Assembly (NCBI RefSeq): GCF_004010195.1
Contig: NC_057756.1
Location: 7,444,275-7,508,274, forward strand
Length of the DNA: 64,000 bases
From: Chiloscyllium plagiosum
Taxonomy: Eukaryota
Reading direction: 5' to 3'
Shown here: positions 1,853 through 63,539 of the stretch, piece after piece
Layout: the number at the start of each line of letters is the position of its first letter
Position numbering within the stretch: position 1 is the stretch's first letter
Program-made: the position numbers and the translations under genes
Notes under the pieces: generated by a model
The model's database searches: none
Seen by the model: the letters and a program-made list of their open reading frames with translations, nothing else
What the model was told of the DNA's origin: nothing

Positions 1853-2694
1853 TTAATGCACTGACAATTGTGATTCTGTCACTTGGAAAATGCGAGCTCT
1901 CCAAATGCACCACGCATTATTTGGTGGCTATGGCAACAGCAGATCTGATGGTCATTGTTACTGACGTCATATTGTATCAACAAAGTCAGTACTTTTGCCA
2001 GAGATCATTCCTGCTTTATGTGAGTTCAGACTGTTCTGTCTGGTTCACTGTGACTTTCTCCGCTGACCAGTTTATGACCATTTGTTGTCGAAAACTGAAA
2101 CTGAAACTGTTATTCTTTCAACAACCTGCACTGTTTTCTTTCTAAAAAAAGCTCCTTTGTTTTACACGGGAACCAATGATTGTGGTTGATAATGTACACT
2201 GGTCCTGTCAAATTAAGGACAGCTATTATATAAGGATGGTTTATGACTGGGTTGATAAGGTGTTAACACCATTACTCCCGTTCAGTTTAGTTTTGCTCTT
2301 CAATGCTTTGACAGTTAGATACGTGTTAGTGGCGAATCGGATCCATAAAGGATTGAGGAGTCAGAACACGGAAGAGAAACGCAGTGATCCTGAGATGGAC
2401 AGTAGAAAGAAGTCAATGATTTTACTATTCGCTATATCTAGTAGTTTCATATTGCTGTGGTCACCCTATGTAATAAATTTCTTATATTATCGAATTGCAG
2501 CAATTGATCCCAAATCTTACGATGAAAGTTTGCATGTATTTGAAAGAATTGGATATATGCTGCTGAGTTTGAGTTGCTGCACAACTACGTTTATTTATGG
2601 AATAACTCAGTCGAAGTTCAGGGAACAGTTCATTAGCGCTGTAAAATACACATTGACTGCAATTAAAAGAGTGTTTACTTCGAGAATGAATTGA
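1853..2694 (+). pseudogene. GPR139/142-like class A GPCR, copy A1, exon 2 (disrupted; exon 1 would lie upstream of the window)
   Basis: Acceptor ...ctctcacAG at 1851-1852, then VNALTIVILSLGKCELSKC. The exon is 842 bp against 911 bp in intact copies. Losses are a 36-bp in-frame deletion (~2010, removes the TM3 Cys), 22 bp (~2106, frameshift to TAA at 2143-2145), 2 bp (~2157) and 9 bp (~2230), totalling 69. DRF has become DQF and NTFIY has become TTFIY. Confidence 0.92.
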
Positions 2695-3604
2695 TGAAAA
2701 TCTCTGAGACAGTACCGCATATGACTTTGTTTTCCCAGAGTGCAGCATTGAGTAGAAAATATCCTTCAAATGATTTGTGTCAAAATTCTTAGCTTGCATG
2801 AAAACACAAACAGCAGTGCAGGCTATCCTTCGATTGGATGTTGTTTTGTTTTGGATTTAATAATGAAAAAGGACTGGATTAAAGTCAAAGAAAGATAATG
2901 AGAAAGCATCGGTGGTCTTTATATATAAAACAGTTTGTAAGTCTTCAAATCACAAGCAAAAATGCCATCCCATCTGAATTAAATGTACTGTACTGAGAGA
3001 GTTTCATTTTGTACAACATCTACAGTTGTGACTCAGCAGCTTCTTTTACTTCCTGTTCTTGGGAGTTTGTTAGACTTGTTTATTCACACAACTGAATATT
3101 CTGAGCATCAAAGGACCCTACCTGATTTCACACCAAAAATGCCTGGCTTGGAATTTTCATATTAATACATTTGCAGTAGAATAACAGTTTCAAATTGTTC
3201 GGAATTAATTCCTTTCTGGGAGAGAATTTGTTCAGAATCTTCCAGTCTCTGTGAAATGCTCCAAATACCTCACTACTCAGGTTTTCATTACACAAAAAAG
3301 TCTTTATTCTTCAAAACCAAAAGCAGGTACAAAGTTGCCGTTGCTGATCATAAAAGGCTCGCAAAGCAAATTATTGCACGATATCTCTCCAGTATCACCC
3401 CAATTACCTGCTCTCTGACACAGGATGTTTTGAATTGATGGCTCCAGGAAGACTAACATACTACTGATTACCCTTCATGCACACAGACTAAAGCTCACAT
3501 TTCATCAGGTCAAAAACTGAACGCAAAAGTATATCACGTCTTCACAACATAAATTGTGCTCCTAATATCATATTCCTATGTTTTTACATTACTGCCACAA
3601 GTCA

Positions 3605-3735
3605 AACAAAATCAGGTTATAATTCAATAGGTTTATTTGGAATCACACACATTTGGAGCACTGCTGTTTCGTCAGGTGAAGTGCCATGTGACTTCCGACT
3701 GTGCCGACCCCAGTCCAACACCAGCACCTCCACCA
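3605..3735. mobile_element. Degenerate Penelope-like terminal-repeat relic (paralogs ~23990-24110, ~43140-43260)
   Basis: aggttatagtccaacaggttt...ttcatcaggtg...ccccagtccaacaccagcacctcc, with a decayed CTGANGA core on the minus strand. Family assignment is from recall. Confidence 0.5.
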
Positions 3736-5772
3736 TTTATATTATTACACTCATGGTTTATTTTCGAAACTTCCACACTCTGAATATTCTGTTAATAGAT
3801 TATTTTCTTATTTTGTATTGCTCTTTTTGGTGCTATTTGCTGAGTTATTTGCTTTACACATGTTACCTTTCGAATTTCCCTCTGGAGAAAAACGTCTCCT
3901 GTTTAATCAAAACAATGCTATTAAAAAATGACACTAATGAGTAGCACATAATGACTGAGATGTTTGTAAATTCTCATTTGGTTCAATCATATCCTTTGAA
4001 GAAGGAAGCTGCTATCCGGATGTGTTCTGACCTCCATGTGACTCCAGACTTAGTGCAATGTGGTGACTCTTAGCTGACATATTGGCAATTACCAATGGGC
4101 AATAAATGTTGGCTTCAGTGGCAACATCCACGTCCAACAAATGAATTAACATAAACAGTAATATATTTAGGTTTTTAGACGTCATCGTCTGTATTTGAAA
4201 AAAAAGAGGCTTGATTTCAAATGGTGACTTTAGTCTCAGATGTCAGGTACCATAAAATAATAGTCAAGAAAAGAACCCAATTAAGCTTTAAGTCACTTTC
4301 CCATTCTTTCTTCCGAAGTTAATGACTCAAATCTTTCTTGGTTACAACTGTCCGTTGCTGATCTTATCTGTTTGCACATATCAACAGGAAATTGGCTTCA
4401 ACTCTGGACCATTGATCACTTTCCATCCTGCCTCTAGTTGCTGGTTGCTGAAATTCACATGGATAGTCTTGCTACCTGAAAGGTGACAATTCCTATTTAT
4501 TCTGGACAGTATCTGACATTTCATCACAATAAAACCCAACTAAGAAAGAATACAAGTGAATTTAAGCTGCTCCAAATCCGATTTCAAATTGTTTCCATTC
4601 AGCATGACCTTTGTATTCCAATGGATATTAGTTCAACTATGGGTCAACTTTGAAGCTCACATTGTTGCTCCCCATTCCCAACATAGCCTCTGTCTTCCAT
4701 TACAGTTCCACCATGTGTATCTCTACAGAAAGTTCGCTCTTTGACTATTCCATTCCTCTATATATCGACTGATGTTTTCAAGCCATCCAGCACTAAGAAA
4801 GATATAAAAACACATCTGACCTTGTGAGTCAGTAGCAGTAGGTCATCTGAAATCTAAAGGCTGCACCAACATTGAATAAGTGCAAGGCTGATAAGATTAT
4901 GACTTTAAATCCACATTGTAACCTACCAATGATACCTTCACCCGACATCAAATTGCATGCACTTCGTGAGTATTGTATGACTTTGTTTCCATCACTCTCT
5001 GGTTAGAAAGTTACAAAGATACACTTCGCCATTTTCACCAAGAACTGAATTTGGAACATTGTTAAAGCCTCAATCGTTAAAGGTGTCTGTCTCACAACTC
5101 TCTTTTTAATCTCACTTTTAGAACTATGTTCAAGGTTCACTTTCGATCATCGATCATATTGTTTATGCATAGAGTTCAGTGTCATGGTTTCAGGGTGAAT
5201 TCTACTGTGAAGTATTTGTGCATTTTCATAAATCCTCATTCTTTATAAACATTTTCCTATCATGACTGACATATAGTGTTCTTTAAGAATTGTTTTGCGT
5301 GTATTTAGAGATCATTTAGTGTTCCTACTCCATTTAGCTCCTTTTTCTCTTAGAGAAAGTCATCTTACAATGATAATGGGAATGCAGGTAGGAAGGCGAA
5401 GGTAGGTACACTCTCACCTGTCTGATGTCACGGCAAAATGTAACTGTTTTACGGTCAATTGGACACTTTCTCTATGTCAGATTGAGGACAAAGAGCTCAA
5501 ATAATCAGCTTTATTTAATGATTTTATTTCCAACAAAGCTGCAGTTATTTGATGAAGGCAAAGACAGGTCGAATGAAGTCATTGGAACAAGGTGAGCCAG
5601 GTTGAGCTCAAAGAATAAGACTTCCCTGATTGGGGCTGTTACTCTGGTCCAAACAGGAAGCCCTGACTAACTGACATAAACAGGAGTGGCAGAGGCTCTG
5701 CTCACTCGAGGAGCCGGTATTGAGCTAGCTGGGTACGATGGTATGTACAATAACAGGATACTGTCCTCTCTG

Positions 5773-5775
<3 letters not shown>

Positions 5776-5811
<36 letters not shown>

Positions 5812-5985
5812 GAGAGGGAGAGAGAGAGCAAGAGAGAGAGAGAGAGAGAGAGAGAAAATATGTGTATGTGTGTGTGAGGGAGAGGTAGAGAGAGATAATG
5901 TGCATGTGTAGGTGAGAGAGATAGGGAGAGAGAATGTGTATGTGTGTGTGAGAGAGATGGACAGAAAGAGAAAATGTGTGTGTGT
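5776..5985. repeat. Compound (GT)n/(GA)n microsatellite
   Basis: Directly visible. It produces the spurious SLSL/HTHT/ERER ORFs. Confidence 0.97.
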
Positions 5986-7074
5986 AACATTTCCAGACCC
6001 CACCAGAGGGGAATTAGAAGGTGACTGTCTGTGTGTGAGTCGGTGATGATTCAGTCAGTGATGATTCAGTCAAAGTCATAGACAATTAGAAATTGCAGCT
6101 CTAATTAACCTAGAGAACCTCTTAAAAGAACATTGAAAAGGCGTCTGGGTGGGTGCAAGTATAGGAAGGGTTTAAATGGATTTGGGTCAAATGCTGGCAA
6201 ACAGAACTAGATTAATTTTGCATTTCTGCTCGGCATAGACGAGTTAGACTAAAGGGTTTGTTTCTGTGATGTACAACTCTATGATTCCATGTTTCTTACA
6301 AGTTCATGAGATAACAGACAACAAGTCAAATGAGCACTCCCCCATGATTTTATTGTCTGGTGGGGGTTGAGCTCAATGGGCCAAATGACCTACTTTGGTT
6401 CCTGCATGGTCTGTTTAGCTCAGTCAGTTGGTTTACATTCACTTATTTGGCATTGGTTGAATCCGTTGGTGCTGACGTAGCAATGGCGGACACAGTTCCC
6501 GCAATTACCCTGGGTTTAGAAAGTCCCTATTTCTGATAATGTCCAAATTGCACTCTGGGAAAATCCCTTTGCCAACATATAGTTTCTCAGCATGATGCAA
6601 AGCACAGCTTTTATATGTTTTTCTCAGCTTCCAAATTCTCTTCCTTCAATTTTGATCAAAAAATCAAAGTTGCCGCCATTTGTCAATTGATGGTGGTGAT
6701 TCAGAATTAATACAATGGATGTCAGCGGTGTTCTGTGATATAACACCAATATGGCTGCCACCTCACGGGACAAGCCCAATTTTATTAACGAGGAGGGAAG
6801 CCAGAAGAGCAATGGCTGGCTGACCCTAAGTCTGTTTTAAGTTTTTCTCCTGTTACTTTAAAATATGACCCTTAGTTTGAACTCCCACACCCGAGGGAAA
6901 ACACCCTTGTCATTCACATTATCCATGACCCCCATGATTTTAAAAGCTCTTCAGTCTCCTATAATCCTGTAAACAAACTCCCAGGCTATCCATCCTTTCT
7001 GTACAACACAAACACTTTATCAATGGCAACATCCAGGTAAATCTCTTCAGAACTCTGTCCAAGTTGGTATTTTT

Positions 7075-7865
7075 GAAAATATATGTGTGGGGATGTAGCC
7101 TTCGCTGACTAGGCCAACATTCATTGACTATCCCAAGTTGTGCCTTGAGAAGGTGGTGGGCTGTCTTCTTGAACTGCTGCAGTTCACCTGCTGTAGTTAG
7201 ACCCACAATGCCATTAGGGAGGGAATTCCAGGATTTTGACCCAACGACAATGAAGGAATGGCTGTATATTTCCAAGTCAGGATGGTGAGTGGCTTGATGG
7301 GGAGCTTGAAGTTCAGGGTATTCATACGCTCTTCTGCCTTGTCCTTGTAGATGGAAGTGTTCATGCATTTGGAAGGTGCTGTCTCAGGATCTTTGGTGAA
7401 TTTCTTCAGTGCATCTTGAAGGCAGTACACACTGCTGCTCTTGCTGGAGGGATTGGATGCTTGTGGTCGTGGTGCCAAACAAGCGGAGGCTGCTTTGCCT
7501 TTCGAGTGCTGTTGGAGGTGCACCCAACCAGGCAGGTGGGGTGCATTCCATCACACTCCTGACTTGTGCCTTGTAGATAATGGGCAGGTTTTGAGGAGAA
7601 AAGAGGTGAGTTACTCGCCACAGTATTCCAAGGTTGTGATTTGCTCTTGCAGCCATTGCATTTATATTGTGAATTCAATTGAGTTTCTGGTCAATAATAA
7701 CCCCCAGGATGTTGATAGTGGGTGATTCAGTGATTGTAACATCAGTGAATGTCAATGGGCGGTGGTTAGATTGTCTTTTATTAGGGATGGCCATTGCCTG
7801 TCATTTGTGTGGTATGAACGTTGTTAGCTATTTGCCAGCCAAAGCCTGGATATTGTCCAGATCCT
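7075..7865 (-). mobile_element. Non-LTR retrotransposon 3' part (CR1/L2 group, second family); paralog ~47565-48357
   Basis: Minus-strand peptides IYKAQVRSVMECTPPAWLGA and SFIVVGSKSWNSLPNGIV are typical of the region after the RT domain. The frame is broken by frameshifts. Confidence 0.75.
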
Positions 7866-7899
7866 TTACTGGATGTTACACAGTGATATTTCACAAGGC

Positions 7900-8510
7900 T
7901 CAGTTCTGGGATCTTTGTCCAAAGATCCCACAAATTTGTCACTCAGACTGATAGATTTGCTCTGAAGCTGTATGGCGTGTTGGCTTTCATTATCAGGGCG
8001 ATGGAGTTTAAGAGCAGCGAGGTTATGCTGCAGGTCTATAGAGCCCTGGTTGGACCACACCTGGAATATTGTGTCAAGACCTGGTCCCTTCATCATTGGA
8101 AATATCTGGAAGCTTTCGAGAGGACGCGGAGGAGATTTATCCGGATGCTGCCAGGCTTTTCCCATTGGAGCGAAGAAGAATCAGAGGTGAATTGGTAGAG
8201 GGGTACAGGATGTTGACATGCATCGATCGAGTGGATAGGCAGAGACTTTTTTTCCCATGGCAGAAACATCCATCATTAGGGGGTATGATTTTAAGGTATT
8301 TGAAAGAAGGTTTAGGGCAGATGTCAGAGGTCAGTTCTTGACACAGAGAGTGGTGGGTGTGTGGAATGAACTGCCAGCAGTAATAGTAACGTCAGATACA
8401 TTCAGCGCATTTAAGCAGCTCTTGGATAGTCATATGGGACATTGTACAATGAAGCGGATGTAGCTTAGTCTGGTCTGAGAACAGGATGAAAGGCTGGCAC
8501 AACATTGAGT
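7900..8510 (+). mobile_element. CR1 LINE 3' fragment; paralog ~48390-49030
   Basis: Encodes QVYRALVGPHLEYCV and FLTQRVVGVWNELP. Confidence 0.8.
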
Positions 8511-8649
8511 GCCCACTGGTTGTGGTCAAAGGCTCGGGCCAAAGCCTGACGGGGTACAATTGTTTGAGAAAGTTTCAACTTCATTGGCTCAACATTTTTG
8601 ACAATGAAATGCCTGCCTGTTCTCTGTTCTGTCTTCTTAGCTGAAGCCT

Positions 8650-10010
8650 AATGGGACCTCAAACAGGCACTACAACTGGAAATGCAGCAAGTGGACCATT
8701 CGGGTTCCAGGGTATTCTGACAAAAGTGGACGCACTCACCAGGTTGACTGAGCTTGGGGGACACCACTTGAATGAAGGTATTTGCATAACCTCACTCAGG
8801 AGATATCCTGAACAGAGGGTCACCAGGTCAGTCCACTGCAAAATCCTGAAAAACTGCCAAGACCTGATCAAATTTTCTCAACAATCCAGGCCAGCAGGCC
8901 ATTGTAATTGCTGCTAGTTATCGGACTTCAGACAGGAAATAATTCCCCTCTGCCTGAATTAATTAAGAGAGCTCACACGCCAGTATCCAGGACTGTGCAC
9001 ACCCTGGAAAGTCCACCTATACCTGATATGCAACCATTAAATTGCTTAGCAACAACCACATCAATACCAAATAAAATCTGGAAGTTTTGATAGGGGTTGA
9101 GGCCAATGTGCATTTTTCAGTGATTGCAGAATCAGTTTTGAACAAAATTCGCTCCGGACTCGAACCCTTAAGTTAGCGTAAGATATTGACCAGACTGAGA
9201 GTCTATGCCGGGGACAGTTCTGGTCTGTTATGAGAAGCAGCTGGTTCAGTTCCCACTGGTTGTGGTCAAAGGCTCGGGCCAAAGCCTGACGGGGTACAAT
9301 TGTTTGAGAAAGTTTCAACTTCATTGGCTCAACATTTTTGACAATGAAATGCCTGCCTGAATGAAGTCCTGATTAAATACCCAGAAGCTTTTCAGAAATG
9401 TCTAGGGACTATCATACGGGCATAGGTCACCTTACATGTTGACATGGAAGCAATTCCACAATTGTGCAAGGCCAAATTTGCCTTATGGGCAAAAGGAGAG
9501 GCAGAAATCAGGAGGCAGGAAATCGAAGGAATCATCAAACCAGTGCAGTTTGGAGAATGGTCCGCACTGGTCGTATTGATTGTGAAGCCTGAAGGGTTGG
9601 TTCACTGCAGTGGGGATTTCGAGCAAATGGTAAATCGCCTTCCACAGCTAGATAAATACCCAATCCCTCGTATACAGGGCTCATACACAAAACTGGAAAG
9701 TGGGTGTTCCTTCATGAAAGTGGATGAGCCATGAGTTCAAGTGATTAGATGAAGAATCCCAGATGCATGCTTTCCCATAAGTACAAACTTATCATTATAT
9801 ACGAGACTGCTCCTTTGGGGCATCATCAGCCTGTGCAATTTTCTAGTGGCCAATGTGTGAACATTTTACAAGGGCTCCCCCAGGTCACCATTTGTGTGGG
9901 TAATGTGCCAATCACTGGGAAAATCAATAAAGAGCATCTCAAGAACTTGGAAGTAATGCTTAAGCATTTTTCCAATGCAGATGGATGTTTTAGGGGAAAA
10001 GTATCCATAT
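8650..10010 (+). mobile_element. Decayed Gypsy/Ty3 LTR-retrotransposon gag-pol remnant
   Basis: ORF 9444-9734 EGIIKPVQFGEWSALVVLIVKPEG..CSGDFEQMVNR...DKYPIPRI matches the Gypsy RT N-terminus. The YxDD region has decayed to QVTICVGNVPITG. The 5' boundary is approximate. Confidence 0.8.
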
Positions 10011-10399
10011 AAATAACACCCATCGAGTTACTTCCGACCACTACCTTTGTCACCTCTTTAAAAATGACGGTTTCCAGGCATGAGCTAACATGAATCCATG
10101 CTGGCTCTCTTTGATTAGCTGATATTTTTGAGGTGAGTTATTACTTTCTCCTTCATTACAAGTTCTAACAACTTCCCCATCACAGATGTCAGGCTGATTC
10201 ATCTCTAATTCCCTGGTTTCCCTCTGTCTCCCTTCTCAAGGATTGGAGCAACATGAGCAAAATTCCGACCAGAGGTACAACTCCCCTTGATGATGGGATC
10301 AAGGAGCAGGGGCGTAGATTTAAGGTAAGGGGCAATGGTTACAGAGGAGATCTCAGGAAGAGACTTTTCACATTGAGGGTAGATAGAATTTACAAGAAA

Positions 10400-10895
10400 G
10401 TTATCAACACTGGATGGCTTGAGTTATAAGAAGAGGGTGAATAGAGTTTGAGTCAGAGTCATTTAGCATGGAAACATGGGAATTCTTTCACTGGAACATT
10501 GGAACCAGACGGGTGACTGGACAGAGGTTAATAAACTCATGAGGGGCATGGATACGTTGAATAGGCAAGGTCCTTTCGCCAGGATAGGGGGTATTCAATA
10601 TAGAGGCCATAGATTTAAGGTGAGTTGTGAAAGATTTAAAAGAGACCTAAGGGTTAACCTTTTTACACAGAGGTTGGTGCATGTATGGAATGAGCTGCTA
10701 GAGGGAGTGGTGGATCTGGTATAATTACAACAGTTTAAAGTCATCTGGATAGGTATATATGTATAGGAAGGCTTTAGAGGGATATGGGCTAATTGCTGGA
10801 AAATAGGATTGGATTAATTTAAGATATCTGGTCATCATGGACAAGTTGGACTGAAGTGTATGTTTCTGTGCTGTGCAGTTCTATGACGCTATGAA
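10400..10895 (+). mobile_element. CR1 3' fragment; paralog ~51525-52017
   Basis: Encodes RGHRFKV...FTQRLVHVWNEL and ends in a ctatga tail. Confidence 0.8.
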
Positions 10896-11697
10896 AAAGC
10901 AAATGCTGATGTGACACCCAATTCAAAATGGGAGAAAGGGAAAATGGATAATTGTCAGTCAGTTAGCGTAACATGTCTAAGTAGCAAAACGATGAAATCT
11001 ATTGTAAAAGATAAAATATGAGTATTTTGAAACGTGCAATCAACCAGAGTGAGCATTGAGTCATGAAAGGGAAATGATGGCTAAAGATGGATGACATTTC
11101 TTTGAGAAAGCAACAAACAGGGTAGGGGAAGTCGAACAAGTTGTGGTAATGTGTTGGAATTTCAAGGAGGTGTCACACATAAGACGTCTTTGTTGGATAG
11201 CAATCATTGGATGCAGAACATGACCATGAATAGAGGACTTGCTAACTAATAAGAAGCAGCTAGTTGGTATAGAAGGAAAACTATAGGATGATGTGACATT
11301 TAAGCAACTATTATTGACAATATATTTTCGTGATTTGAATGATGGAAATGAGTGTTCTGTCGTCATTTTACGGTCATGTACCAAACTGTTGGGAAGGCGA
11401 GGGATAAGGATGGCCCAAGGAATCCATGCAATAATATAGACAGTGTAAAGGAGTTGGAAAATAAAATTTGACAGTCGCAATGTAAAGCAGGCATGTGTGA
11501 AGTTGAACATTTAGTCAGGAAGAATAGGAGAGTTGGAAAACATTTACAATGGGGCAAGTTCAGACAAATCTTTAGGGGAGAGAAATTTGTGGGTCCCACA
11601 ACAGGGTGTGATAGAATCTTAGAGTCATAGATATGTACAACACGCAAATAGCGCCTTCGGCCCAACTCATCCAGGCTGACCAGATATCTGAAGTTCA

Positions 11698-11826
11698 GAG
11701 AAAGTGAGGACTGCAGATGTTGGAGATCAGTCGAAAAAGGTGGTGCTGGAAAAGCACAGCAGGTCTGGCAGTGTCAGAGGAGCAGGAGAATTGACGTTTT
11801 GGGAATAAGACCTTCATAATTCCTGA
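11698..11826 (-). mobile_element. Short Penelope-type terminal fragment with a degenerate hammerhead core; paralog ~52826-52955
   Basis: Same family as 35262-35386 (gagaaagtgaggactgcagatg...). Confidence 0.65.
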
Positions 11827-11924
11827 TAATGTCAGAATTAATGACAAATAGTAAAACCTAACCTGAAATCTCTCTGTTGAAAGAAATCTGACTATGATCG
11901 GATGAATCAAGACAGAGGACAAAG

Positions 11925-12415
11925 TAGCAAACTTTTCGATGCAACTTAGAAGGCATCCGGTCCAGATGGATCAACTGCTCTGCTCAAGACCACAAGAAAT
12001 TACAGAGAGTTGGGAGCACAATCCAATTCATCATACAAACCAACCTTCCTTTCATTGACTTCATCCACAATTCCCATGGCCATTGGAAAGCAGCCAACAT
12101 CTTCAAAGACCCTTCCCACCCGAGCTATACATTGTTTCACTCGCTTCCATCAGGCAAAAGATATAATAGCTTGAAAACATGCAGAAACAGATTCAAGAAC
12201 AGCTTCTTCCTCGCTGTTATCAGACTCATGAATGGCTCTCCTGTGTAGTAGACTTGATTATTCTCTGCACCTTCTCTATCATTGTAACACTACATTCAAT
12301 GTTCTCTTCTATTACCCTGATGTATTTACGTAAGGTATGATCTGTCCAGAACACACGCAAAACAATCTTTTTCGCTTTTTATCAGTGCATGCGACAATAA
12401 TAAATGAAATAAAAT
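11925..12415 (+). mobile_element. Rex1/Babar-like LINE 3' end (related copies ~32880-33340, ~35090-35875, ~53045-53540)
   Basis: Contains cttccatcaggc...ttcaagaacagcttcttc (RFKNSFF motif) and an aataaa(tgaaa)n tail. The clade call is from recall. Confidence 0.6.
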
Positions 12416-12784
12416 GGAACCCACTGCGGCATATTAATGACTGATCTGTAGGACTAGAATCTTTTCGATACTGGTCAGTTCTATTGCCACGTAATGACTT
12501 TCAGGATATCCAAAGCCATAGCTCATTGGATGGTGATGGTGATGATAATACAATGCAACAATAACAAGGTTAAATGATGTATTTCATTTGAAGAGTCTTA
12601 CATGGAAACATACAGATTATAAGCTGGTGATAGGACAGGTGAAGAGGAAAAATGACGTGCAAACGCAGTCAAATGTCTCAGCAATAATTTGAATCGGAGA
12701 CCCAAAAATCTTACATGGTATGAAATTATTGGGGATGAAAATAGGAAGCATTTTAGATCCACTCAGGGTTGAAGTGTAAAATTT

Positions 12785-13216
12785 NNNNNNNNNNNNNNNN
12801 NNNNNNNNNNNNNNNNNNNNNNNNNNNNNNNNNNNNNNNNNNNNNNNNNNNNNNNNNNNNNNNNNNNNNNNNNNNNNNNNNNNNNNNNNNNNNNNNNNNN
12901 NNNNNNNNNNNNNNNNNNNNNNNNNNNNNNNNNNNNNNNNNNNNNNNNNNNNNNNNNNNNNNNNNNNNNNNNNNNNNNNNNNNNNNNNNNNNNNNNNNNN
13001 NNNNNNNNNNNNNNNNNNNNNNNNNNNNNNNNNNNNNNNNNNNNNNNNNNNNNNNNNNNNNNNNNNNNNNNNNNNNNNNNNNNNNNNNNNNNNNNNNNNN
13101 NNNNNNNNNNNNNNNNNNNNNNNNNNNNNNNNNNNNNNNNNNNNNNNNNNNNNNNNNNNNNNNNNNNNNNNNNNNNNNNNNNNNNNNNNNNNNNNNNNNN
13201 NNNNNNNNNNNNNNNN
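12785..13216. other. Assembly gap (432 N)
   Basis: Run of N. Confidence 1.
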
Positions 13217-13970
13217 CAGTGTAGGCTATTGCACAAACTACGGAGGCATGGGATTGAGGGTGATTTTGTGGTTTGGATCAGAAAATGGCTAGCTGATAGA
13301 AGACAGGGTGTGGTGGTTGATGGGAAATGTTCATCCTGGAATTTAGTTCCTAGTGGTTTGCCACAAGGATATGTTTTGGGTCCACTGTTGTTTATCATTT
13401 TTATAAATGACCCGGATGAGAGTGTAGAAGGCTGGGTTAAAAGATTTGTGGATGACACTAATGTCAGTAGAGTTCTTGGTCGTGCTGAAGGATGTTGTAG
13501 ATTACAGGTGAACATAGATAAGCTGCAGAGCTGAGCTGAGAGCTGGCAAATCTAGTTTAATGTGGAAAAGTTCCAGGTGATTCACTTTGGAAGGAGTAAC
13601 AGGAATGAAGAAAACTGGGTTAAAGTTTGCAGTGGAGATGAGCAGAGGGAGCTCGGTGTCCATGTACATGGATCCCTGAAGGTTGCCTCCCAGGTTGACA
13701 GGGTTGTTATGAAGGCATACGATGTATTAGCTTTTATTGGTAGAGGAACTGAGTTTCGGAACCATGAGTTCATCATGCAGCAGCTGTACAAAACTCTGGT
13801 GTGGCCACACTTGGAGTATTGCGCACAGTTGTAGGAAGGATGTGGAAGTGTTGGAAAGGCTTCAGTGGAGATTTGCTAGGCAGTTGCCAGGATCGAATGA
13901 AGGTCTTACGAGAAAAGGGTAATGGATTTGAGGCTGTTTTCATTAAAGAGAAGAAGGTTCAGAGGTGATA

Positions 13971-14280
13971 TTTTTTAAATTAGATTTCTTCCAGTGTGGA
14001 AACAGGCCCTTCAGCCCAACAAGTCCACACCGATCTGCTGAAGCGCACCCACCCAAACACATTCCCCTACACCTAACACTACTGGCAATTTAGCATGGCC
14101 AATTCACGTAACCTGCACATTTTTGGGCTGTGGGAGGAAACCGGAGCACCCGAAGGAAACCCACTCAGATACGGGGAGAATGTGCAAACTCCACACCGTC
14201 AGTTGCCTGAGGTGGGAATTGAACCTGGGTCTCTAGCTCTGTGAGGCAACAGTGCTAACAACTGTTCAACCGTGCAGCCC
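13971..14280 (-). mobile_element. tRNA-derived HE1/V-SINE-type SINE
   Basis: The minus strand shows A/B-box-like motifs (gttagcactgttgcctcacag...ggttcaattcc) and the central gtggagtttgcacattctcccc...ggtttcctcccacag domain. It is absent at the paralogous site ~55468. Confidence 0.85.
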
Positions 14281-15551: not shown

Positions 15552-15722
15552 AGCAACATTTAAGAGGCATTGGATGGGTATATGAATAGGAAGGGTTTTG
15601 AGGGATATGGGCCGGGTGCTGGCAGGTGGGACGAGATTGGGTTGGGATATCTGGTCGGCATGGACGGGTTGGACCGAAGGGTCAGTTTCCATGCTGTACA
15701 ACTCTATGACTCTATGACTCTA
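15552..15722 (+). mobile_element. Young, heavily 5'-truncated CR1 tail inserted into an older CR1
   Basis: Ends in (actctatg)n. The paralog at ~56740 reads uninterrupted ttattcaagaagggctgc. Confidence 0.85.
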
Positions 15723-18134: not shown

Positions 18135-18214
18135 TGGTTTCTGAACGCAGTAATACGATGTTCAACTCGAAGGTTTTGGTTTCACCATCCAGGATTAGAA
18201 CTTTCCCACGCAAA

Positions 18215-18281: not shown

Positions 18282-18304
18282 GTAAGTCCTTTTTTTATAA
18301 TTCA

Positions 18305-31480: not shown

Positions 31481-31487
31481 GGAGTAG

Positions 31488-32020: not shown

Positions 32021-32024
32021 CCGT

Positions 32025-53300: not shown

Positions 53301-54169
53301 GTCGCAGCAGATACAAGAACAGCTTCTTCCTTGCTGCTATCAGACTCATGAATGGACCTCCTCTGTATTAGTGTTGATTATTCTCTGCACCTTCTCTGTC
53401 ATTGTAACACTACATTCAACGTTCTCTTCTATTACTCTGATGTACTTATGTAAGGTATGATCTGTCCAGATCACACACAAAACAATCTTTTTCACTTTTT
53501 CTCAGTGCATATGACAATAATAAATGAAATGAAATGAAACTCACTGTAGCATATTAATGACTGATCTGTAGGACTAGAATCTTTTCGATACTGGTCAGTT
53601 CTATTGCCACGTAATGACTTTCAGGATATCCAAAGCCATAGCTCATTGGATGGTGATGGTGATGATAATACAATGCAACAATAACAAGGTTAAATGATAG
53701 ATTTCATTTGAAGAGTCTTACATGGAAACATACAGATTATAAGCATGTGATAGGACAGATGAAGAGGAAAAATGAACGTGCAAACGCAGTCAAATGTCTC
53801 AACGCTTAATTTGAAAGGGAGACCCAAAAATCTTACATGGTATGAAATTATTGGGGATGAAAATAGGAAGCATTTTAGATCCACTCAGGGTTGAAGTGTA
53901 AAATTTATGCTCAGAATGATAGGAAAAGTAGAGGATTGTGAGGAATATTTTGTACCGATGTTTATAATTAAAGAGATATTGATAAATATCGATAGAAGTG
54001 GAAACAATAAATTTAATGTGGTGTGAAATTTGGTTGAAAAGCATTAAGAGAAATGTAGTCAACGTTTGTGGGAAGTTAACGCCTGTTCTGGCTCGTTTGG
54101 AATTATGGCTTTAAAAGCAAATGGTAAATCATGAAATAAATTGTCATCTTCATTCAGATTTCAAAAGCA

Positions 54170-57100
54170 GAAAGGGCAAAATGGTATCACGGCAGGAGAT
54201 TTTAATTTTCCGAACACAGATTGGGACTGCTAGACCATTAAGGACTTAGATGGGTTGGAATACTTTAATAACATTCATCAGAATTTTTTCAATCTATCCA
54301 CTGGGCCGAATGGGATTTATCCGAGGATTCTCTGGAAGACCAGGGAGCAACTTGCATAGTCTTTGGCTTTGATCTTTATGTCGTCATTGTTTACAGGAAT
54401 AATGCCAGAAGGTTGGAGAAGAGCAAATGTTGTTCCCTTGACCAAGGAGGGGAGTAGAGACAACCCTCTTAATTATAGATCAGTGAGCCTTACTTTGTTT
54501 GTGGGTAAAGTGTTCGTAAAAGTGAGAAGAGATAGGATTTATCATCATCTAGAAAGGAATAAATTATTTAGGGATAGTCAACAGGATTTTGTGATTGGTA
54601 GGTCACGCCTCACAAACCTTATTGAGTTCTTAGAGAAGGTGACCTAACAGGTGGAGGAGGGTAAAGTGCTTGATGTGGTGTACATGGATTTCAGTAAGGT
54701 GTTTGATAAGGTTTCCAGTGTAGGCTATTGCACAAACTACGGAGGCATGGGATTGAGGGTGATTTTGTGGTTTGGATCAGAAAATGGCTAGCTGATAGAA
54801 GACAGGGTGTGGTGGTTGATGGGAAATGTTCATCCTGGAATTTAGTTCCTAGTGGTTTGCCACAAGGATATGTTTTGGGTCCACTGTTGTTTATCATTTT
54901 TATAAATGACCCGGATGAGAGTGTAGAAGGCTGGGTTAAAAGATTTGTGGATGACACTAATGTCAGTAGAGTTCTTGGTCGTGCTGAAGGATGTTGTAGA
55001 TTACAGGTGAACATAGATAAGCTGCAGAGCTGAGCTGAGAGCTGGCAAATCTAGTTTAATGTGGAAAAGTTCCAGGTGATTCACTTTGGAAGGAGTAACA
55101 GGAATGAAGAATACTGGGTTAAAGTTTGCAGTGGAGATGAGCAGAGGGATCTCGGTGTCCATGTACATGGATCCCTGAAGGTTGCCTCCCAGGTTGATAG
55201 GGTTGTTATGAAGGCATACGATGTATTAGCTTTTATTGGTAGAGGAACTGAGTTTCGGAACCATGAGGTCATCATGCTGCAGCTGTACAAAACTCTGGTG
55301 TGGCCACACTTGGAGTATTACGCACAGTTGTAGGGAGAATGTGGAAGCGTTGGAAAGGCTTCAGTGGAGGTTTACTAGGCTGTTGCCAGGATCGAATGAA
55401 GGTCTTAGGAGGAAAGATTAAAGGAGTTGAGGCTGGTTTCATCGAAGAGAAGAAGGTTGACAGGTGACTTAATTGAGACATATAATATAATCAGAGGGTT
55501 TGTGAGGGTGAACAGGTGAGAGCTCTTTTCCACGAATTGCGATGGCTAGCACGAGAGGACATAGCTTTAAATTGAGGTGTGATAGACATCAGACAGATGT
55601 CAGTGGTAGTTTCTGTTCTCAGAGAGTGGTAGGGGCATAAAACTCACAGCTTGCTACAGGAGTAGACTCAGCAACTTTAAGTGCATTTAAATGGTAATTC
55701 GATAGATATATGGGCGAAAATGAAAAAGTGCAGGGTAGATGGGCTTCAGATTGGTTTCACAGGTTGGCGCAACATCAATGGCTGAAGGGACTGTACTGTG
55801 CAGTAATGTTCTATGTTCTATGTTCAGAGAAGTTTCCTCAAGCAGCATATAGAGGCTCCTACTCGGGAAAGGGCCAAACTCGACCTACTCTTGTGAAATA
55901 GGGTAGAACAGGTGATGGAGTGACAATGGGGGAGCACTTTGGGACCAGTGACCACAGTTCTATTAAGTTTAGAATAGTTATGGAGAGGGACACAACTGGC
56001 CCACAGGTTCAATGTCTAAATTGGGGCAAGGAGAATTTTGATGGAGTTAGACAGGAGCTTGCAGGGAACAGTTTATTTGCCGGCAAAGGGATGTTTGGCA
56101 AGTGGGAGGTGCTTAAAAATGAGATAGCTCGAGCTGAAGGTCTATGTGTTCCTGTGAGGGTGAAGGGCAAGTTTGGTACGAATATGATGAAAAGACATAT
56201 TGAGGCTTTGACCAGAAAAAAACAAAGGAGGTATGGCTCAGGTACAGGAAGCCGGTACCAAGGGAATCCCTGGAGATATCTAGAAAGTACAGGCGTTTAC
56301 TGAAGTAGGAAATCGGCTGAGCAAAAAAGGGGCACGAGATTGCCTTGGCTGAAAAGATGAGGGTGAATCCAAAGAGTTATTTTAAATATATTAAAGAAAA
56401 TTAAAGGAAATTGAATGCTGAGAGTGAGAATAGGTCCCGTTAAGGATCAAAGTGGAAATGTATGTGTAGAGATGGGTGAGATTCTCATGGATTATTTCTG
56501 CTTGTTGGAAACTTGTGAAGTTAGTTGTGATATCTTGGGGACAGTCCATATTTCAGCAGAGGAGGTGCTGGATGCATTACAATGTATCAAGGTGGATAAA
56601 TCTCCTGGTCCTGATCAGATTTATTCACAATTGCAAGAGGCTTGAGAGCAATTTCAGTGACCCTGGCTAATCTTTTTGCATCATCGTTAGCCACGAATAG
56701 GTTCCCAGAAGACTGGACGTTAGCCAAAGTTGTACCATTATTCAAGAAGGGCTGCAAAGGAAAACCTGGGAACTATAGACCAGAAACCCAAACATCTGTG
56801 GTCGGAAAGTTATCCTTGAGAAGATTCTGAGGCATAAGATTTCGACACATTTGGAAAGATTGGGTTTTATGTGGAGTAGTGAGCTTGGCTTTTTGACTGG
56901 GAGATCATGGTTGTCAAATTTGTTGGAGTTCTTTGATGAAGTGAGCAGAACGTTTGACGAGGGCAGAGCGATAGATGTAGTCTATATGGATTTTAGTAAG
57001 GCCTTTTATAAGGGTCCACATGGTAAGCTATTCTGAAAGGTCAGTTCGCAAGGAATCCAGGGCGAGCTGGCAAATTGCATACAAAATTGGCTTAATGGTG

Positions 57101-58160
57101 CGAAGCAGAGGTTAATAGTGGAAGGATGCTTGTTGAACTGGAGACCTGTGATTAGTAGAGTACCTTAAGGTTTGGTGCTGGACCCATTACTGTTTTATAT
57201 AAATTATTTGGATGAGAATGTACAAGGCATGATTAGTAAGTTTGCAGCTGACACTAAAATAGGCAGTATTGTGGACAGTGAAGAAGATTATCAAAAACTG
57301 CAGCAGTACCTTGGCCAGCTGGGCAAGTGGGCTGTGAAATGGCAAATAGATTTTAACATCAATAGATGTGTGGACTTGCATTTTGTAAAGTCAAGCCAAG
57401 GTAGGAGGCTCATGGTGAATGGTAGGGCCTTCAGGAGTGCAGTGGAACAGAGGCATCTTGGAGTTCAGGTTCACATTTCTCTGAAAGTGGAGTCACAGGC
57501 AAATAGGGCAGTGAAGAAAGCATTTAGTACACTGGCCTTCATCAGGCAGAGCATTCAGCATTGAAGTTGGGAAGTTATGTTTCACATGTACAGGACATTT
57601 GTAAGACCGCACTTGGAGCATTGTGTTCAATTTTGGTCAGCTTGCTATTGGAAGGATGTTATTAAACTGGAAAGCTTGCAGAAGGAATTTACAGAGATGT
57701 TGCCAGCACTCAATGGCCTGGGTTATAGGGAGAGGTTGAACAAGCTTGGACTTTTTTCTTTCAAGTCGAAGATCTTGAGGTGGTGGGGGATTTATCGAGG
57801 TGTATAAGATCATGAGGGGCACAAATAGGGTGAATGCACTCAGTCTTTTTCCCAGGGTTGAGTCATCGAGGACGAGAGGGCAGAAAGGTTCGAGGGGAAA
57901 TAATAAAAAGTGGCAAGTTTATTTTACACAGAAGGTAGTACGCAAATTAAATGAGCTGTCAGTGGAAGCGGTTGAGGTAGGTACATTAACAACATTTAAA
58001 AGGCATTTGGACAAATAAATGGATAGGAGTGGGTTAGAAGGATATAGTCCAAGTGGAGGGAAATGGAGTTAGAGTGGATGGATATTTTGCTCGCCATGGG
58101 CCTGTTTGGGCCAAAGACCCTGTCTCCGTGTGGGGGATTCTCTGACTATATGACTCGATG
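54170..58160 (+). mobile_element. Two adjacent decayed CR1 LINEs, paralog of 13217-17000
   Basis: Encodes WRRANVVPL..NYRSVSLT, PQGYVLGPLLF and SKFAADTK. The block is absent at the homologous A2 position (~36505). Confidence 0.9.
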
Positions 58161-59120
58161 TGAAGTAGGAAGAATATCCCAGAGGATGAAGGAGCAGCAA
58201 AGTTCATGATTTTAGCTTAGAATCTACTGAGGGATTTCAAACCATTCCAGTGTAGCTATTTTTGCATGACTAGTGGGAAAAGAACATTGATTGAATGGAA
58301 ACATTAAAACAAAGGTGTTTCATTTAATTAATTTTGAGTTCAGTGTAGGTAGAGGTAGGTGTAGTTCTCAATAACTGGTGCTATCAGAACCAAGGGCTCA
58401 TAGGACAAGAAATAGATCATTTTGGACAAAGATAGCAAGTCATTTATTCACCCAGAGCATGGTGATACCAAGGAATCCTCTGCCAAAGAAAGTGGTTGAT
58501 TCCAAAACTTTGGACGTTTTCAAGAAAGCAATCGATATATTTTTATTAAGCTAAAGTGATTAAAGGATGTCAGGAGAAAGCGGTGAGCAGAGTCCTGAAT
58601 TGTATGATCGGCCATCATTAATATTGGGTTGTGAAGTAGATTTGAAAGACCGAATGGACTCACCCTACTCATATATTGCATGTCTCTGTGTTTGATTGAG
58701 ATGCCTCCGTAGAAGCAGCAGCACCTTATGAGCTTAAGCTGTTGTATTACTTTGGTTGTTTAGCTCAGGTCGCTGGATCTGTCAAACACAAGTATTGGTT
58801 TCAATCTCTGTCGGAGTTTGAAAGCTGGTATTGATTTATGAAAATGACGGGCATTTTTTTCGTACAAATGGTGGTGTCTGTATGGAATGAGATGCCAGAT
58901 GAGGTGATAGAGGCTGGGACAATTATAACACAGAACAGGCATCTGGATGGGTATATGAATATGATGTATTTCGTGGGATTTGGGCCAAGTGCTGGTAAAT
59001 GAGACAAGGTCAGAGAGGGAGGTCTGGTCAGCATGAATCGGTTTGACTGAAGGGTCTGTTTCCGTGCTGAACAACTGCATGATTTCTGCAATTCATTGCT
59101 CACAGGGATTGTTCTATCAA

Positions 59121-59293
59121 TGAGTCACTAAGGGTATAAGCCTTCTCTTTGATATTTTCTTATGAAGTCAGAACGAAATAATTTGAATGCAACAGGGACT
59201 TAATATCTCGGTGGTAATATATTTTCCATAACAGGTTAGAAATACGAATGATGCAACTTTAACATTCCCTTGAGAATCTGAAAGAGTATAAAA
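59121..59293 (+). promoter_or_regulatory. Putative proximal promoter of copy B2
   Basis: TGAGTCA at 59121-59127, TGATGCAAC at 59249-59257 and TATAAAA at 59287-59293. Confidence 0.55.
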
Positions 59294-59373
59294 TGGTTTC
59301 TGAACACAGTAATACGATGTTCAACTCGAAGGTTTTGGTTTCACCACCCAGGATTAGAACTTTCACATGCAAA

Positions 59374-59440
59374 ATGCTGCAGTTGTTCACCATTGTTGAT
59401 AAAGTATATTACATCACTATTGCTGCTATTGGCGTCCCTG
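59374..59440 (+). CDS. GPCR copy B2, coding exon 1
   Basis: ATG at 59374 and donor G|GTAAGT at 59441. A 3188-bp phase-1 intron runs to 62628. The exon lies inside track ORF 59293-59571. Confidence 0.9.
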
Positions 59441-62400
59441 GTAAGTCCTTTTTTTATGATTCATTCATAGGATGTGGGCATCGCCGGCTAGGCCAGCATT
59501 TATGGCTCAGAGGGGAGTTTAGGAGTCAGACACATTGCTGTAGGTCTGGAGTCGCATGTTGGTCAGACTAGGTAAGGATTGCACTTTCCTTCCCGAAAGG
59601 ACATTAGTGGGCTAGACCGATTTTACCAAAAATCAACAATGATTCATGATTGTCATTAAACTTCTAATTCCAGATTTTTGTTTACGTTGAATTCAAATTC
59701 CATCATCTACCATAGGGAGTCAAATCTGGGTACCCAGTACATTATCGGGGTCTCTGGATTAATAGTCCAGTGATAATGTTGTGATGCAATTCCCTTCCCT
59801 TAGCCGAACTTTGAAAGTTGCATCAATCTGTGCAATGGAATGCCATGCGAACGTGCTTACAGTTTGCTCAAAGTATTTACCAATTGTTTTCACTGCAGGT
59901 CAGTTAGCGCTGCCATCATCGGACATGCATTATCAGGATTGTTGCAAGTTTTGACTGGAACTTAATGATAGGAGAATCTCTGTGAGCAGTAGATTGCAGC
60001 GATCGGAGACTCATAGAGTTATACAACACAGAAACACAGCCTCCAGTCAAGCCAGCTATTAAAATGGTGGCAAGATAAGACACTGTAGTCAGACCGCCTG
60101 TCTCTCCAGTTCCTTTTCCTTGTCCTTCCTTTCTTGTCACCAGTTTGCAGTATTTTTTCACACACCCACCTCTCACCCCCGCCCAACCCTGAAACTTTTA
60201 GCTACCCCAGCTGGGGAATGGAGATGAGTCATGACTGGATACACGACAGGGGTGAGCAGGGACGAAGACACGGAATGAATCCTCAGGTTACGGCAGTAGG
60301 AAATCTTTTTCCCAGAACGGCATGTGGGGAATCTTGACTCCCAGAGTGGTAAGCGGGGAATCCCAAGTTCCAGAGCAGCATGATGTGAAGCGTCACTAAT
60401 CTTGTTGCTGCTGAGTGTCGGTGAAGGATTGGGCTGAATGTTGGAGAGATGGGGGACACTTGTGGGCCCTCGCACCATGTGCTGAGCTGCTGCTGTTGTA
60501 ATGCTTTACCGGGCTGTAATGTAAACAGCTACCTCATTCCTAACTATACTCAGACACTGTCAGTAATGCTACTGCTTCCCTTTTGAAGCTCTTTAGTATA
60601 ATATCACTGTACTTTTTTTACTCTGTGCGATTTGTACTTGTACCAAAGATGGTATCATTAATTGGCAGCTATTGTAAAATCTTTCCACTGTACTCCTGTA
60701 CTTCTGTACTGGAGGATAAGTGACAACAAAGGATATTAATTATGTATAGTTCTGTTGAGTTGATGACGTGCAAGGAAGACGTTTCCTTGCTTAACACATC
60801 TTATTCGAATTATCTTGTTGAACAATTAAGATTTCTCTTTTCAAAGAATAGTTTAGAGAAAGAAGCGCTAATATTTCCTAATCTCAGTGAGTTACAGGAT
60901 GCAGTAAAATGTGTTCACTAACACATCGCCAGTACTGAGGATGTTTTCCAGTCTTCAACATAATTAGTGATTCGAAATGTAGTTTCCAAAAATGTAGATA
61001 AATATGAGGAGCTAAATTTTAAAAAGGCATATTAGAGCAGGACTTCTTCACTATTTGTCATGGGTCCTGAGGACTACTGCCTGGCAAACAGATCTTGGAA
61101 TGCACGTACATAGTTCCTTGAAAGTGGAGTCGCTCATAGACAGGATAGTAAAGGAAGTGTTTAGTTCACTTGGCTTTAATGGGCCGTGCATTGAGTGTAG
61201 GAGTTAGGACGTCATGATGTGGCTGTACACAACATTGGTTCAGCCACTTCTGGAAAACTGCCATTATTCCTGTTCTCCCTGTGGTAGGAAAGATGCTGTT
61301 AAACCTGAAAGTGTTCAGAAAATATTTACAAGGATGTTAACAGGGACTGCAAGTCTGAGCTGTAGGGAGAGGCTGGATAGGCTAGGCTGTGTTCCCTGGA
61401 GCATCGAAGGCTGAGGGGCATGGATAGAGAGTGAATACTCAAGGACTTTTCCCCAGGGTAAGAGAGCCCAAAGTCTGAGGGCATTGGTTTAAGGTGAGAG
61501 GGGCAAGATTTAAAAGGGATCTAAGGTGCAACTTTTTCAAGCAGAGCGTGACGTGTGTATGGAAAGAGCTGCTAGAGGAAGTGGTGGAGGCTGGTACAAG
61601 TACAACATTTAAAAGGCATCTGGATGGGCAAATGCAAAAAAAGGTTTAGTGGGATATTACCTACATACTGCTAATGGGACTAGATTAATTTGGAATATCT
61701 GCTCAGCATGGATGAGTGGACTGAAGGGTCTGTTTCTGTGCTATTCTCAGAGTGACTGAAAGCAATTGCTGGAGTGTAGCATTGACAGCTGGTTGTGTGC
61801 AAAGAGAAAATAAACCATTTGTAAGAACAAGTTAAAATATATACTTTCTCACTTGAAAGAATTCTTCGTTTTGTCTTATCCTTTGTTAAATTGTTCGATC
61901 CATTGACAGCTCTGCTTGGTTATCTTGATGTTCATCAGTGGTTTCATTTGTCTAACAGCAAATTTCAGTTTCTCAATGGATATCCTTCATCTGTCCAAAT
62001 CCCAACATCAGATCCACTTGTTGATTGGGTGTGGATCTGATATCTTTTTGCAGGTGCCAATGTTGTCATATTCTTGTCAAACATTGTTTAATAAAGTGTC
62101 TGTCCTGTAAGGCAGGATTATGACATGTAATGTTCTCAGAGCCATGATTCTGGGCACTATGTTTTTAATACGGATATCATTCTATGTCAGCTTGCAATGT
62201 GAACATGTGAAAATGAGCCCTTGTAATATTTACATCCGTAACTCTTTGGCTGGGAGAATAGCTTCGTTAATTGTTTAGAACACAGAAGTGAAATGGACAG
62301 TTTGCTATCCTGCTCATATTTCTGATCTTCCATTCATGGAATGATGTCAGTTAAGCTGATACAACATGTGCAACCTGATTCTGCACACAGCAGTAACATA

Positions 62401-62628
62401 TTCCACTGACCACTTTCCACCAACATCGCGATTTTGCAGTACTTCATTTTGAACACCGTACACCCACTCCCTTTGTTTACTGGATGCAGCTAAACATGCA
62501 ATGGAATCAGGATGAAAATTATTTTTACATTTCAATATTCTTCCTGACTGCCCTAATGTCTTCTCGATTCAAATAGAAACCTGTTTGACGTACAATTACA
62601 AAACTAATTTCAGTTTTCTTTCTTACAG

Positions 62629-63539
62629 TTGACACATTGGCAATTGTAATCCTGTCTCAAGGAAAATGCGGCCTCTCCAGACGCACTACTCATTACCTGG
62701 TCGCCATGGCAACAGCGGACCTGATGTTCATCATCACTGACGTTATATTGTATCAACTAAATCAGTACTTTTACCAGGGATCATTCCTATATCTTACACC
62801 TGCATGCATTGTGATTCACTTCCTGGTTTATGTGAGTTCAGACTCTTCTGTCTGGTTCACTGTCACTTTCTCCGCTGATCGGTTTGTGACCATTTGTTGC
62901 CGGAAACTGAAACTGAAATATTGTACAGTGAAAACAGCAAATGTTATTCTTTCAACAACCTGCATTCTTTTCTCTCTAAAAAGTATTCCCATTGTCATGA
63001 CACGGGAAACTATGATTGTGGTTGACAATGTACATTGGTCTTGTCAAATTAAGGACAGCTATTACACAGAACTCGGGTGGATAGTTTATGACTGGTTTCA
63101 GAAGGTGTTAACACCATTACTCCCATTCAGTTTAGTTTTACTCTTCAATGCATTGACAGTCAGATACGTGTTAGTGGCGAATCGGATCCGTAAAAGATTG
63201 AGGAGTCAGAACACGGAAGAGAAGTGCAGCGATCCTGAGATGGAGAGCAGAAGGAAGTCAATGATTTTACTGTTCACTATATCGGGTAGCTTTATATTGT
63301 TGTGGTCACCCTATGTGATAATTTTCATATATTATCAAATTGCAGCACTTGATCCCAAATATTACAACAATAGTTTGCATGTATTTGAAAGAATTGGATA
63401 CATGCTGCTAAGTTTGAGTTGCTGCGCAAATACGTTTATTTATGGAGTAACTCAGTCAAAGTTCCGGGAACAGTTCATTCGCTCTGTAAAATACCCACTG
63501 ACTGCAATCAATCGAGTCTTTACTTTTAGAATGAATTGA
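62629..63539 (+). CDS. GPR139/142-like orphan class A GPCR, copy B2, exon 2 (intact; spliced product 325 aa)
   Basis: Acceptor cttacAG at 62627-62628 and a 911-bp open exon. It has the same 7TM motifs as A2, except TM1 reads GVPVD (N1.50D). Confidence 0.93.

Follow-up and report, generated by a model that had tools for sequence, protein, structure and literature searches.

A very large chondrichthyan family of compact GPR139-related receptors: sequence evidence for a diversified and possibly chemical-sensing repertoire

The 64,000-nucleotide stretch of the Chiloscyllium plagiosum genome considered here (contig NC_057756.1, positions 7,444,275 to 7,508,274; hereafter the window) carries four genes, A1, B1, A2 and B2, for compact class A G-protein-coupled receptors (GPCRs). 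An earlier note on this DNA described them as a tandem array of GPR139/142-like receptors and proposed that they belong to a lineage-expanded, functionally uncharacterised repertoire of cartilaginous fishes. We find that, as judged from sequence comparisons, the four genes are part of a very large monophyletic chondrichthyan family. It is very probable that this family is a diversified sensor repertoire of some kind, be it sensory, immune or somatosensory. We tentatively favor the view that it detects external water-borne chemicals in sensory cells, a proposition that we regard as nearly evenly balanced and that draws indirectly on the variability of the predicted ligand pocket, the gene architecture and the promoter motifs.

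The size of the family is apparent from database searches. A query with exon 2 of A2 recovered 1329 clusters (90% identity) at E<=1e-5 among 2249 candidates, and all 120 clusters listed bear elasmobranch names, mostly under the label 'probable GPR139'. Among the matches listed, the closest proteins are those of Hemiscyllium ocellatum (epaulette shark, 95%) and Chiloscyllium punctatum (91%). At least 68 of the 120, counted by eye, come from the horn shark, Heterodontus francisci, in which they are spread across 27 Mb on 13 scaffolds; the 68 proteins are all distinct at 95% identity over the core, and 63 are distinct at 90%, such that 68 distinct genes stand as a floor for this one genome. An exhaustive search at E<=1e-30 gave 108 clusters at the 50% level, of which many are fragments. 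Taxonomy was looked up for 30 of the 150 proteins listed by this search; of the 18 among these 30 with at least 37% identity, 17 come from chondrichthyans, namely from sharks, skates, rays and Callorhinchus milii, and one is unnamed. A pattern scan of metagenomes gave 135 matches, of which 0 were confirmed. The lineage expansion in cartilaginous fishes anticipated by the earlier note is thus borne out. In a separate observation, the summed contig depth of X1, probably a DNA run, is ~12,200 at 41101-41281 versus ~14-37 in unique-looking bins; this interval encodes the most conserved stretch of transmembrane helix (TM) 3, and the depth would fit hundreds of paralogues but gives no copy number.

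For phylogenetic analysis we used 71 chosen rows and 338 columns under the LG+C20+F+G4 model, rooted on 8 invertebrate-type receptors. The 42 family rows were chosen for taxonomic spread, with long gene models mostly omitted, and the tree excludes true vertebrate GPR139 and GPR142. The chondrichthyan family is monophyletic (97/93) and its sister group is what we term clade B (100/99), followed by clade C (99/98) and then by amphioxus-type proteins. Deep subfamilies in this tree are common to sharks, rays and a chimaera. The gene of the chimaera Callorhinchus nests among shark paralogues (91/90), and the expansion therefore probably began before the chimaera/elasmobranch split.

Clade B was entered through a salamander protein from the exhaustive search, at 32% identity. 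Its members (P0222, P0282-P0301) represent a receptor that is strongly conserved among frogs, salamanders, caecilians and sturgeon and is mislabelled as GPR139. The clade B search gave 25 matches among 1675 candidates, namely 20 amphibian clusters, 1 sturgeon protein and 4 members of the chondrichthyan family. As the 20 amphibian clusters (90% identity) come from as many named species and the sturgeon contributes one protein, the gene is apparently single-copy in amphibians and sturgeon. No teleost or amniote appears among these 25 matches, an absence that weighs little in a word-based search. Clade C, entered through a coelacanth protein at 27% identity, yielded 145 matches, and the 120 listed cover sharks, sturgeon, bowfin, bichir, teleosts, amphibians, turtles and squamates; none of these 120 bears the name of a bird or a mammal. 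Two clade C proteins, P0318 and P0416 (zebra shark and tree frog), carry the annotation of TMEM183A isoforms; TMEM183A may thus be a neighbor of the clade C gene and a candidate synteny anchor. Hence, the assignment to a cartilaginous-fish lineage stands for the expansion but not for the origin, as there is a sister gene in amphibians and sturgeon, and clade C in non-mammalian jawed vertebrates.

A2 and B2 match the Pfam family 7tm_1 (E 1e-21 and 7e-25), the sole Pfam family at E<=0.01, and these matches are not due to chance. The class A assignment is also seen in the seven modelled TM helices and in the anchor residues (N1.50, D2.50, the C3.25-ECL2 cysteine, DR3.50, W6.48 and Y7.53), with two exceptions: B2 has Asp at 1.50, and P7.50 is absent from both proteins. 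The cysteines of TM3 and extracellular loop 2 are present (C82 and C161). The AlphaFold model of P0001, which is 95% identical to A2, comprises 7 TM helices and helix 8 with a mean pLDDT of 86. The N-terminus is tiny, helix 1 being predicted from residue 2 in this model, and A2 has no sequon. Human GPR139 (PDB 7vug/9m42) is the first PDB match by sequence, with E 3e-14 for P0001 and 2e-25 for the family profile, and also the first by Foldseek, with 24% identity in the structural alignment, although other peptide receptors score almost equally. It likewise ranks first in the PDB when A2, clade B, clade C or the amphioxus-type protein serves as query, and the Atlas neighbors are clusters named GPR139 and FMRFamide receptor. 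The proteins are therefore members of a wider GPR139/142-like group that includes receptors of the FMRFamide/sex-peptide type, and in which GPR139 is the nearest characterised relative.

Orthology to GPR139 or GPR142 was considered and rejected, given the 24% identity, the partial loss of the Trp/Phe site and the separate gpr139 and gpr142 genes of a bamboo shark. The latter are an indirect argument, drawn from supplementary table rows that assign one gpr139 and one gpr142 of Chiloscyllium plagiosum to the same orthogroup as the human genes (PMC13689627). The GPR139 match of the family (E 3e-14) is also weaker than that of the coelacanth clade C protein (2e-18) or of the amphioxus-type protein (2e-21). 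Thus, the GPR139/142-like label holds as far as the nearest solved relative is concerned, but these are not copies of the GPR139 or the GPR142 ortholog. Known chemoreceptor families were rejected too. Odorant receptors (ORs) are recognized by their OR motifs, and TAARs and amine receptors by an Asp at 3.32. The OR motifs are absent from the translations and Pfam gives 7tm_1 without 7tm_4 (E<=0.01). Position 3.32 is L89 in A2 and V89 in B2, and Asp falls outside the five commonest residues there in 85 shark rows. These results agree with the earlier statement that the proteins are neither ORs nor TAARs. Similarly, none of the Pfam models for V1R/ORA, TAS2R or V2R is listed for A2, B2, P0001 or P0149.

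We then compared 25 predicted pocket positions across 85 shark proteins of 300-345 aa, drawn from the 120 listed, with the inner TM halves of six numbered helices (TM4 being left out). The shark pocket has an entropy of 1.69 bits versus 0.48 for the inner halves (p 4e-9, with rows that are not independent), and its most variable positions are 3.29, 3.32, 3.33, 7.35, 7.39 and 7.43. The inner helices and loops are nearly invariant across 87 rows. The single-copy relatives show the reverse: the amphibian clade B pocket has 0.04 bits versus 0.55 overall (20 proteins), and the clade C pocket 0.70 versus 1.31 overall (93 proteins). As the median identity is 56% in clade C versus 71% in the shark set, clade C is more divergent and yet has the less variable pocket.

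The response of GPR139 to Trp and Phe needs F109, H187, W241 and N271 (PMC5430874), and its R244 contacts the agonist (PMC8807744). At the corresponding Trp/Phe site (F3x33, H5x43, W6x48, N7x38), A2 has F90, D180, W248 and Y280, i.e. two of the four residues, and B2 has Y90, Q180, W248 and Y280, i.e. one. A2 is without equivalents of H5x43, R6.51 and N7x38. Three of the four residues are kept in the amphibian gene, which is invariant at F3.33, W6.48, K6.51 and N7.39. These patterns point to an ancestral site for aromatic amino acids or peptides that would since have diversified in sharks.

In each of the three promoters in the window, those of B1, A2 and B2, a TATA box ~85 nt 5' of the ATG is still accompanied by two 7-mers, one AP-1-like and the other homeodomain-like. 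An EBF/O-E-like 10-mer lies 11 nt 5' of the TATA box in A2 and B2 and is degraded in the pseudogene B1; this element and the two 7-mers are named for their resemblance to known motifs. The composite of EBF-like site and TATA box occurs twice in the window, both times at an intact gene, with 0.05 expected. Over the 300 nt before the ATG, A2 and B2 are 84% identical, versus 75-78% for the adjacent long interspersed nuclear element (LINE) and intron. The 3' end of this LINE abuts the promoter ~300 nt before the ATG in A and B (37073-37372 and equivalents); as it is present before both, its insertion predates the A/B split and it bounds the proximal promoter. Since EBF sites are characteristic of genes of olfactory neurons as well as of B cells, the EBF-like site does not separate the sensory from the immune interpretation.

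If the family is a chemical-sensing repertoire, its ancestor would have been a single receptor of the GPR139 type that sensed aromatic amino acids or short peptides. Duplication would have started before the chimaera/elasmobranch split, and the copies would have been retuned to many water-borne small molecules, each preserving the same inner signalling face while acquiring a different ligand pocket. Expression might be driven by the compact EBF-site/TATA promoter, in chemosensory cells or neurons of the nose, mouth, gill or skin, and signalling through a common G protein would then give one pathway with many ligand specificities. Tandem expansion, pseudogenes and a variable pocket, as expected of a chemosensory repertoire, are all observed. 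A bolder form of this proposal, which we consider doubtful though with a real chance of being right, is that of a fifth vertebrate olfactory-type family. It would have hundreds of genes, an origin from a GPR139-like amino-acid sensor, sparse sensory-neuron expression from the EBF/TATA promoter and an age of more than 400 million years, and would survive elsewhere only as one conserved amphibian/sturgeon gene.

Several points weigh against a role in detecting water-borne chemicals. Variability of the pocket suits any diversifying repertoire, an immune one included, and the pocket positions come from offsets to anchor residues and not from a ligand-bound structure. A2 and B2 differ at 5 of the 25 pocket positions versus 46 of 325 positions overall, with no clear excess. 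At the promoter, EBF and AP-1 sites suit B cells and leukocytes equally. Taken by itself, the EBF-like 10-mer shows no enrichment (5 matches versus 3.1 expected), and the composite pattern was drawn after inspection, its 2 matches being paralogous and thus equivalent to one event. The 1329 database matches may include distant non-members beyond the 120 listed. Finally, in the catshark all olfactory neurons seem to be microvillous and of the Go/TRPC2 type, and they express V2Rs robustly (PMC10116579), such that the nose does not require an additional family; that study, however, dealt with the four known receptor families only.

The foremost alternative, rather unlikely in our estimate, is an immune or barrier sentinel repertoire comparable to FPRs or mast-cell MRGPRX receptors, in which leukocytes, B cells or epithelium would sense microbial or parasite metabolites and peptides. 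It accounts equally for the pocket variability and birth-and-death evolution, and the AP-1-like and EBF-like sites accord with it, EBF being a B-cell factor. The nearest solved relative, however, is GPR139 rather than any chemoattractant receptor. MAS1 and related receptors are reported to be missing from cartilaginous fishes (PMC8455134), which would leave such a niche free, and the same reported lack of the MAS1/MRG group can be cited for somatosensory or irritant receptors like the rodent Mrgprs, in skin cells or in neurons of the trigeminal and dorsal-root ganglia. Compact size, a short N-terminus and tandem clusters agree with this somatosensory role, but no MRGPR is among the best PDB matches listed and C82 and C161 are retained, and we consider it improbable.

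Another possibility is that these are receptors for endogenous neuropeptides, hormones or nutrients in the brain, gut or gonad that have retained a role like that of GPR139, the extra copies serving dosage or tissue specialisation. No PDB entry matches better than GPR139, be it in sequence or in fold, and GPR139 has been linked to the AST-B, proctolin and FMRFamide receptors (PMC12208981). Nevertheless, sharks retain their own gpr139, gpr142 and clade C gene, the shark pocket is variable where single-copy relatives are fixed, and A2 has lost the equivalents of H5x43, R6.51 and N7x38, all of which makes this explanation quite improbable. Largely neutral amplification, with LINE-rich DNA driving unequal crossing-over and copies drifting with little function, would suit the two broken copies out of four, the Asp at 1.50 in a third and the LINE fragments that fill the window (one tested fragment matches RVT_1), but it is very improbable and largely refuted by the selection pattern: a ratio of nonsynonymous to synonymous substitution rates (dN/dS) of 0.18-0.35 in all four pairwise gene comparisons made, nearly invariant inner helices and loops, deep subfamilies common to sharks, rays and chimaera, and an A/B promoter more alike than the flanking LINE and intron. 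For A2 versus B2, dN/dS is 0.22-0.31 by three methods, and purifying selection acts between A and B.

Within the window, six-frame translation and self-BLAST place all four genes on the same strand at ~20 kb spacing (Table 1). The earlier account of two intact 325-aa genes, one copy with a single frameshift and one with several deletions is confirmed in A2 and B2, B1 and A1, respectively. The A2 and B2 introns are of the GT..AG type in phase 1, and the two proteins are identical at 279 of 325 positions. The two-exon structure holds for B1, A2 and B2, where exon 1 encodes the same 22 residues and sits ~3.2 kb 5' of exon 2. For A1 it is presumed, because exon 1 gave no tblastn match within the window and falls outside it.

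Table 1. Coordinates of receptor exons, promoter-like blocks and duplicated blocks, numbered from the first letter of the window
Feature	Coordinates	Strand	Remarks
A1 exon 2, pseudogene	1853..2694	+	deletions of 36, 22, 2, 6 and 3 nt; premature stop
B1 promoter-like block	17962..18134	+	AP-1-like 17962; homeodomain-like 18020; degraded EBF/O-E-like 18107-18116; TATA 18128
B1 exon 1	18215..18281	+	ATG, 22 codons + 1 nt, GT donor
B1 exon 2, pseudogene	21456..22365	+	single 1-nt deletion near 21717
A2 promoter-like block	37421..37593	+	AP-1-like 37421; homeodomain-like 37479; EBF/O-E-like 37566-37575; TATA 37587-37593
A2 exon 1	37673..37739	+	N-terminus and first half of TM1
A2 exon 2	40896..41806	+	intact seven-TM receptor; 325-aa open reading frame after splicing
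B2 promoter-like block	59121..59293	+	AP-1-like 59121; homeodomain-like 59179; EBF/O-E-like 59266-59275; TATA 59287-59293
B2 exon 1	59374..59440	+	tblastn match
B2 exon 2	62629..63539	+	325-aa open reading frame after splicing; Asp at 1.50
First copy of duplicated A-B block	449..22841	+	self-BLAST; matches 39494-64000, pieces 86-97% identical
Second copy of duplicated A-B block	39494..64000	+	self-BLAST; reaches window end

The array, as read from these alignments, is the product of two steps, an older A/B duplication (A versus B flanks are ~76% identical) followed by copying of the A-B pair as a ~41-kb block. Thus, the four genes are in tandem as claimed before, but they are not four equal repeats. 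Birth-and-death evolution, also claimed before, is supported by the tandem expansion and the pseudogenes. An assembly artefact was rejected, as the copies differ by 6-12% with private lesions and the probable DNA run covers all 30 A2 bins; an assembly gap of ~430 N lies at 12784-13216, within the first block copy. Exon 1 of A and B shows 94-96% nucleotide identity, versus 88% in exon 2 and 75-78% in the introns, and the N-terminus elsewhere in the family is among the most variable parts, unlike in A and B; gene conversion or strong local constraint may account for this sameness. The Asp of B2 is the sole one at 1.50 among 87 aligned rows, of which 84 have Asn and 2 a gap; it is encoded at 62629-62633, and the pseudogene B1 retains Asn there. 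As it replaces a near-invariant N1.50, B2 may be an impaired or non-functional open frame. In B1 and B2 the frame stays open 5' of the shared ATG (18134-18214 and 59293-59373), with two further in-frame ATGs. The shared ATG is the likely start, because the A2 frame is shifted upstream of it and a TATA box directly precedes it.

Sequencing reads were placed on 37300-42700. Two single-cell runs for which the tissue is not stated (covered at 2% and 6%) gave 113 and 0 records, the probable DNA run 8937 and a possible RNA run 903. RNA reads at A2 are mostly intronic LINE pieces; the depth on exon 2 is <0.5 and no spliced joint is among those listed, a pattern with no usable signal for or against expression. 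A catshark brain and olfactory library has no GPCR in its 50 top genes, V2Rs being likewise absent (PMC11979771). GPR139 names were not found in the supplements of PMC11372145 (4 files), PMC13188829 (8 files), PMC12286861 (12 of 19 files) and PMC10529500 (1 small file), which include single-cell studies of shark immune tissue, but these blanks carry no weight because the tables may use locus ids. A word-matching literature search, with few subscription journals, found no paper on the expansion, which may be described under another name. The portions seen of two papers reviewing GPR139 (PMC12208981, PMC12294341) make no mention of one in sharks. The family thus appears functionally uncharacterised, as the earlier note held, and bears the automatic RefSeq name 'probable GPR139'. 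The genes themselves were already in RefSeq under automatic names, and expanded clusters of class A receptors are known as a kind; what is new is an independent expansion from another ancestor, together with its sister gene in amphibians and sturgeon, the contrast between their pockets and the EBF-like promoter site.

These results bear on the sensory biology of cartilaginous fishes, which have been described as poor in GPCRs, as in the whale shark genome paper (PMC8455134), and in olfactory receptors (PMC8455134, PMC10116579). Given the large olfactory organs of these fishes, such reported poverty is odd. The present family, under its 'probable GPR139' label, is in at least one shark bigger than all four known olfactory families combined. 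Should it prove to be of the olfactory type, it would overturn the view of sharks smelling with a few dozen receptors; should it instead be immune, it would represent a large and hitherto unrecognised sensing system of the earliest-branching jawed vertebrates. In either case, the conserved amphibian gene provides a handle in Xenopus or axolotl on the ancestral ligand and may inform on GPR139, a still-orphan drug target.

With GPR139 and GPR142 the family shares a TM7 motif without proline, and A2 keeps W6.48 and F3.33; it differs in its low identity and in the replacement of three pocket residues, and whereas each of the former is one conserved gene, the shark family consists of many tandem copies and pseudogenes. 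Clade B (RefSeq 'probable GPR139', e.g. XP_069092602.1) has in common with it a motif before TM6, in keeping with their sister-group relationship, but is apparently single-copy with an almost invariant pocket. Rinne et al. 2019 described GPR210A and GPR210B as GPR139/142-related orphans of fishes and coelacanth with no human ortholog (PMC6504862), to which clade C, the next sister group, is comparable; sharks and any expansion go unmentioned in the text searched (0 matches for 'shark' or 'cartilag'). The OR, TAAR, V1R/ORA, V2R/OlfC, FPR and MRGPR repertoires resemble the family in that their genes form tandem clusters on many chromosomes, with pseudogenes among them, and in that the proteins have a short N-terminus and a variable outer pocket, but there is no sequence membership in any of them, with 7tm_1 as the only Pfam match. 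In the catshark there are 34 V2R genes and 4-9 genes in each other olfactory family (PMC10116579), all of which are outnumbered by the at least 68 genes of the horn shark family.

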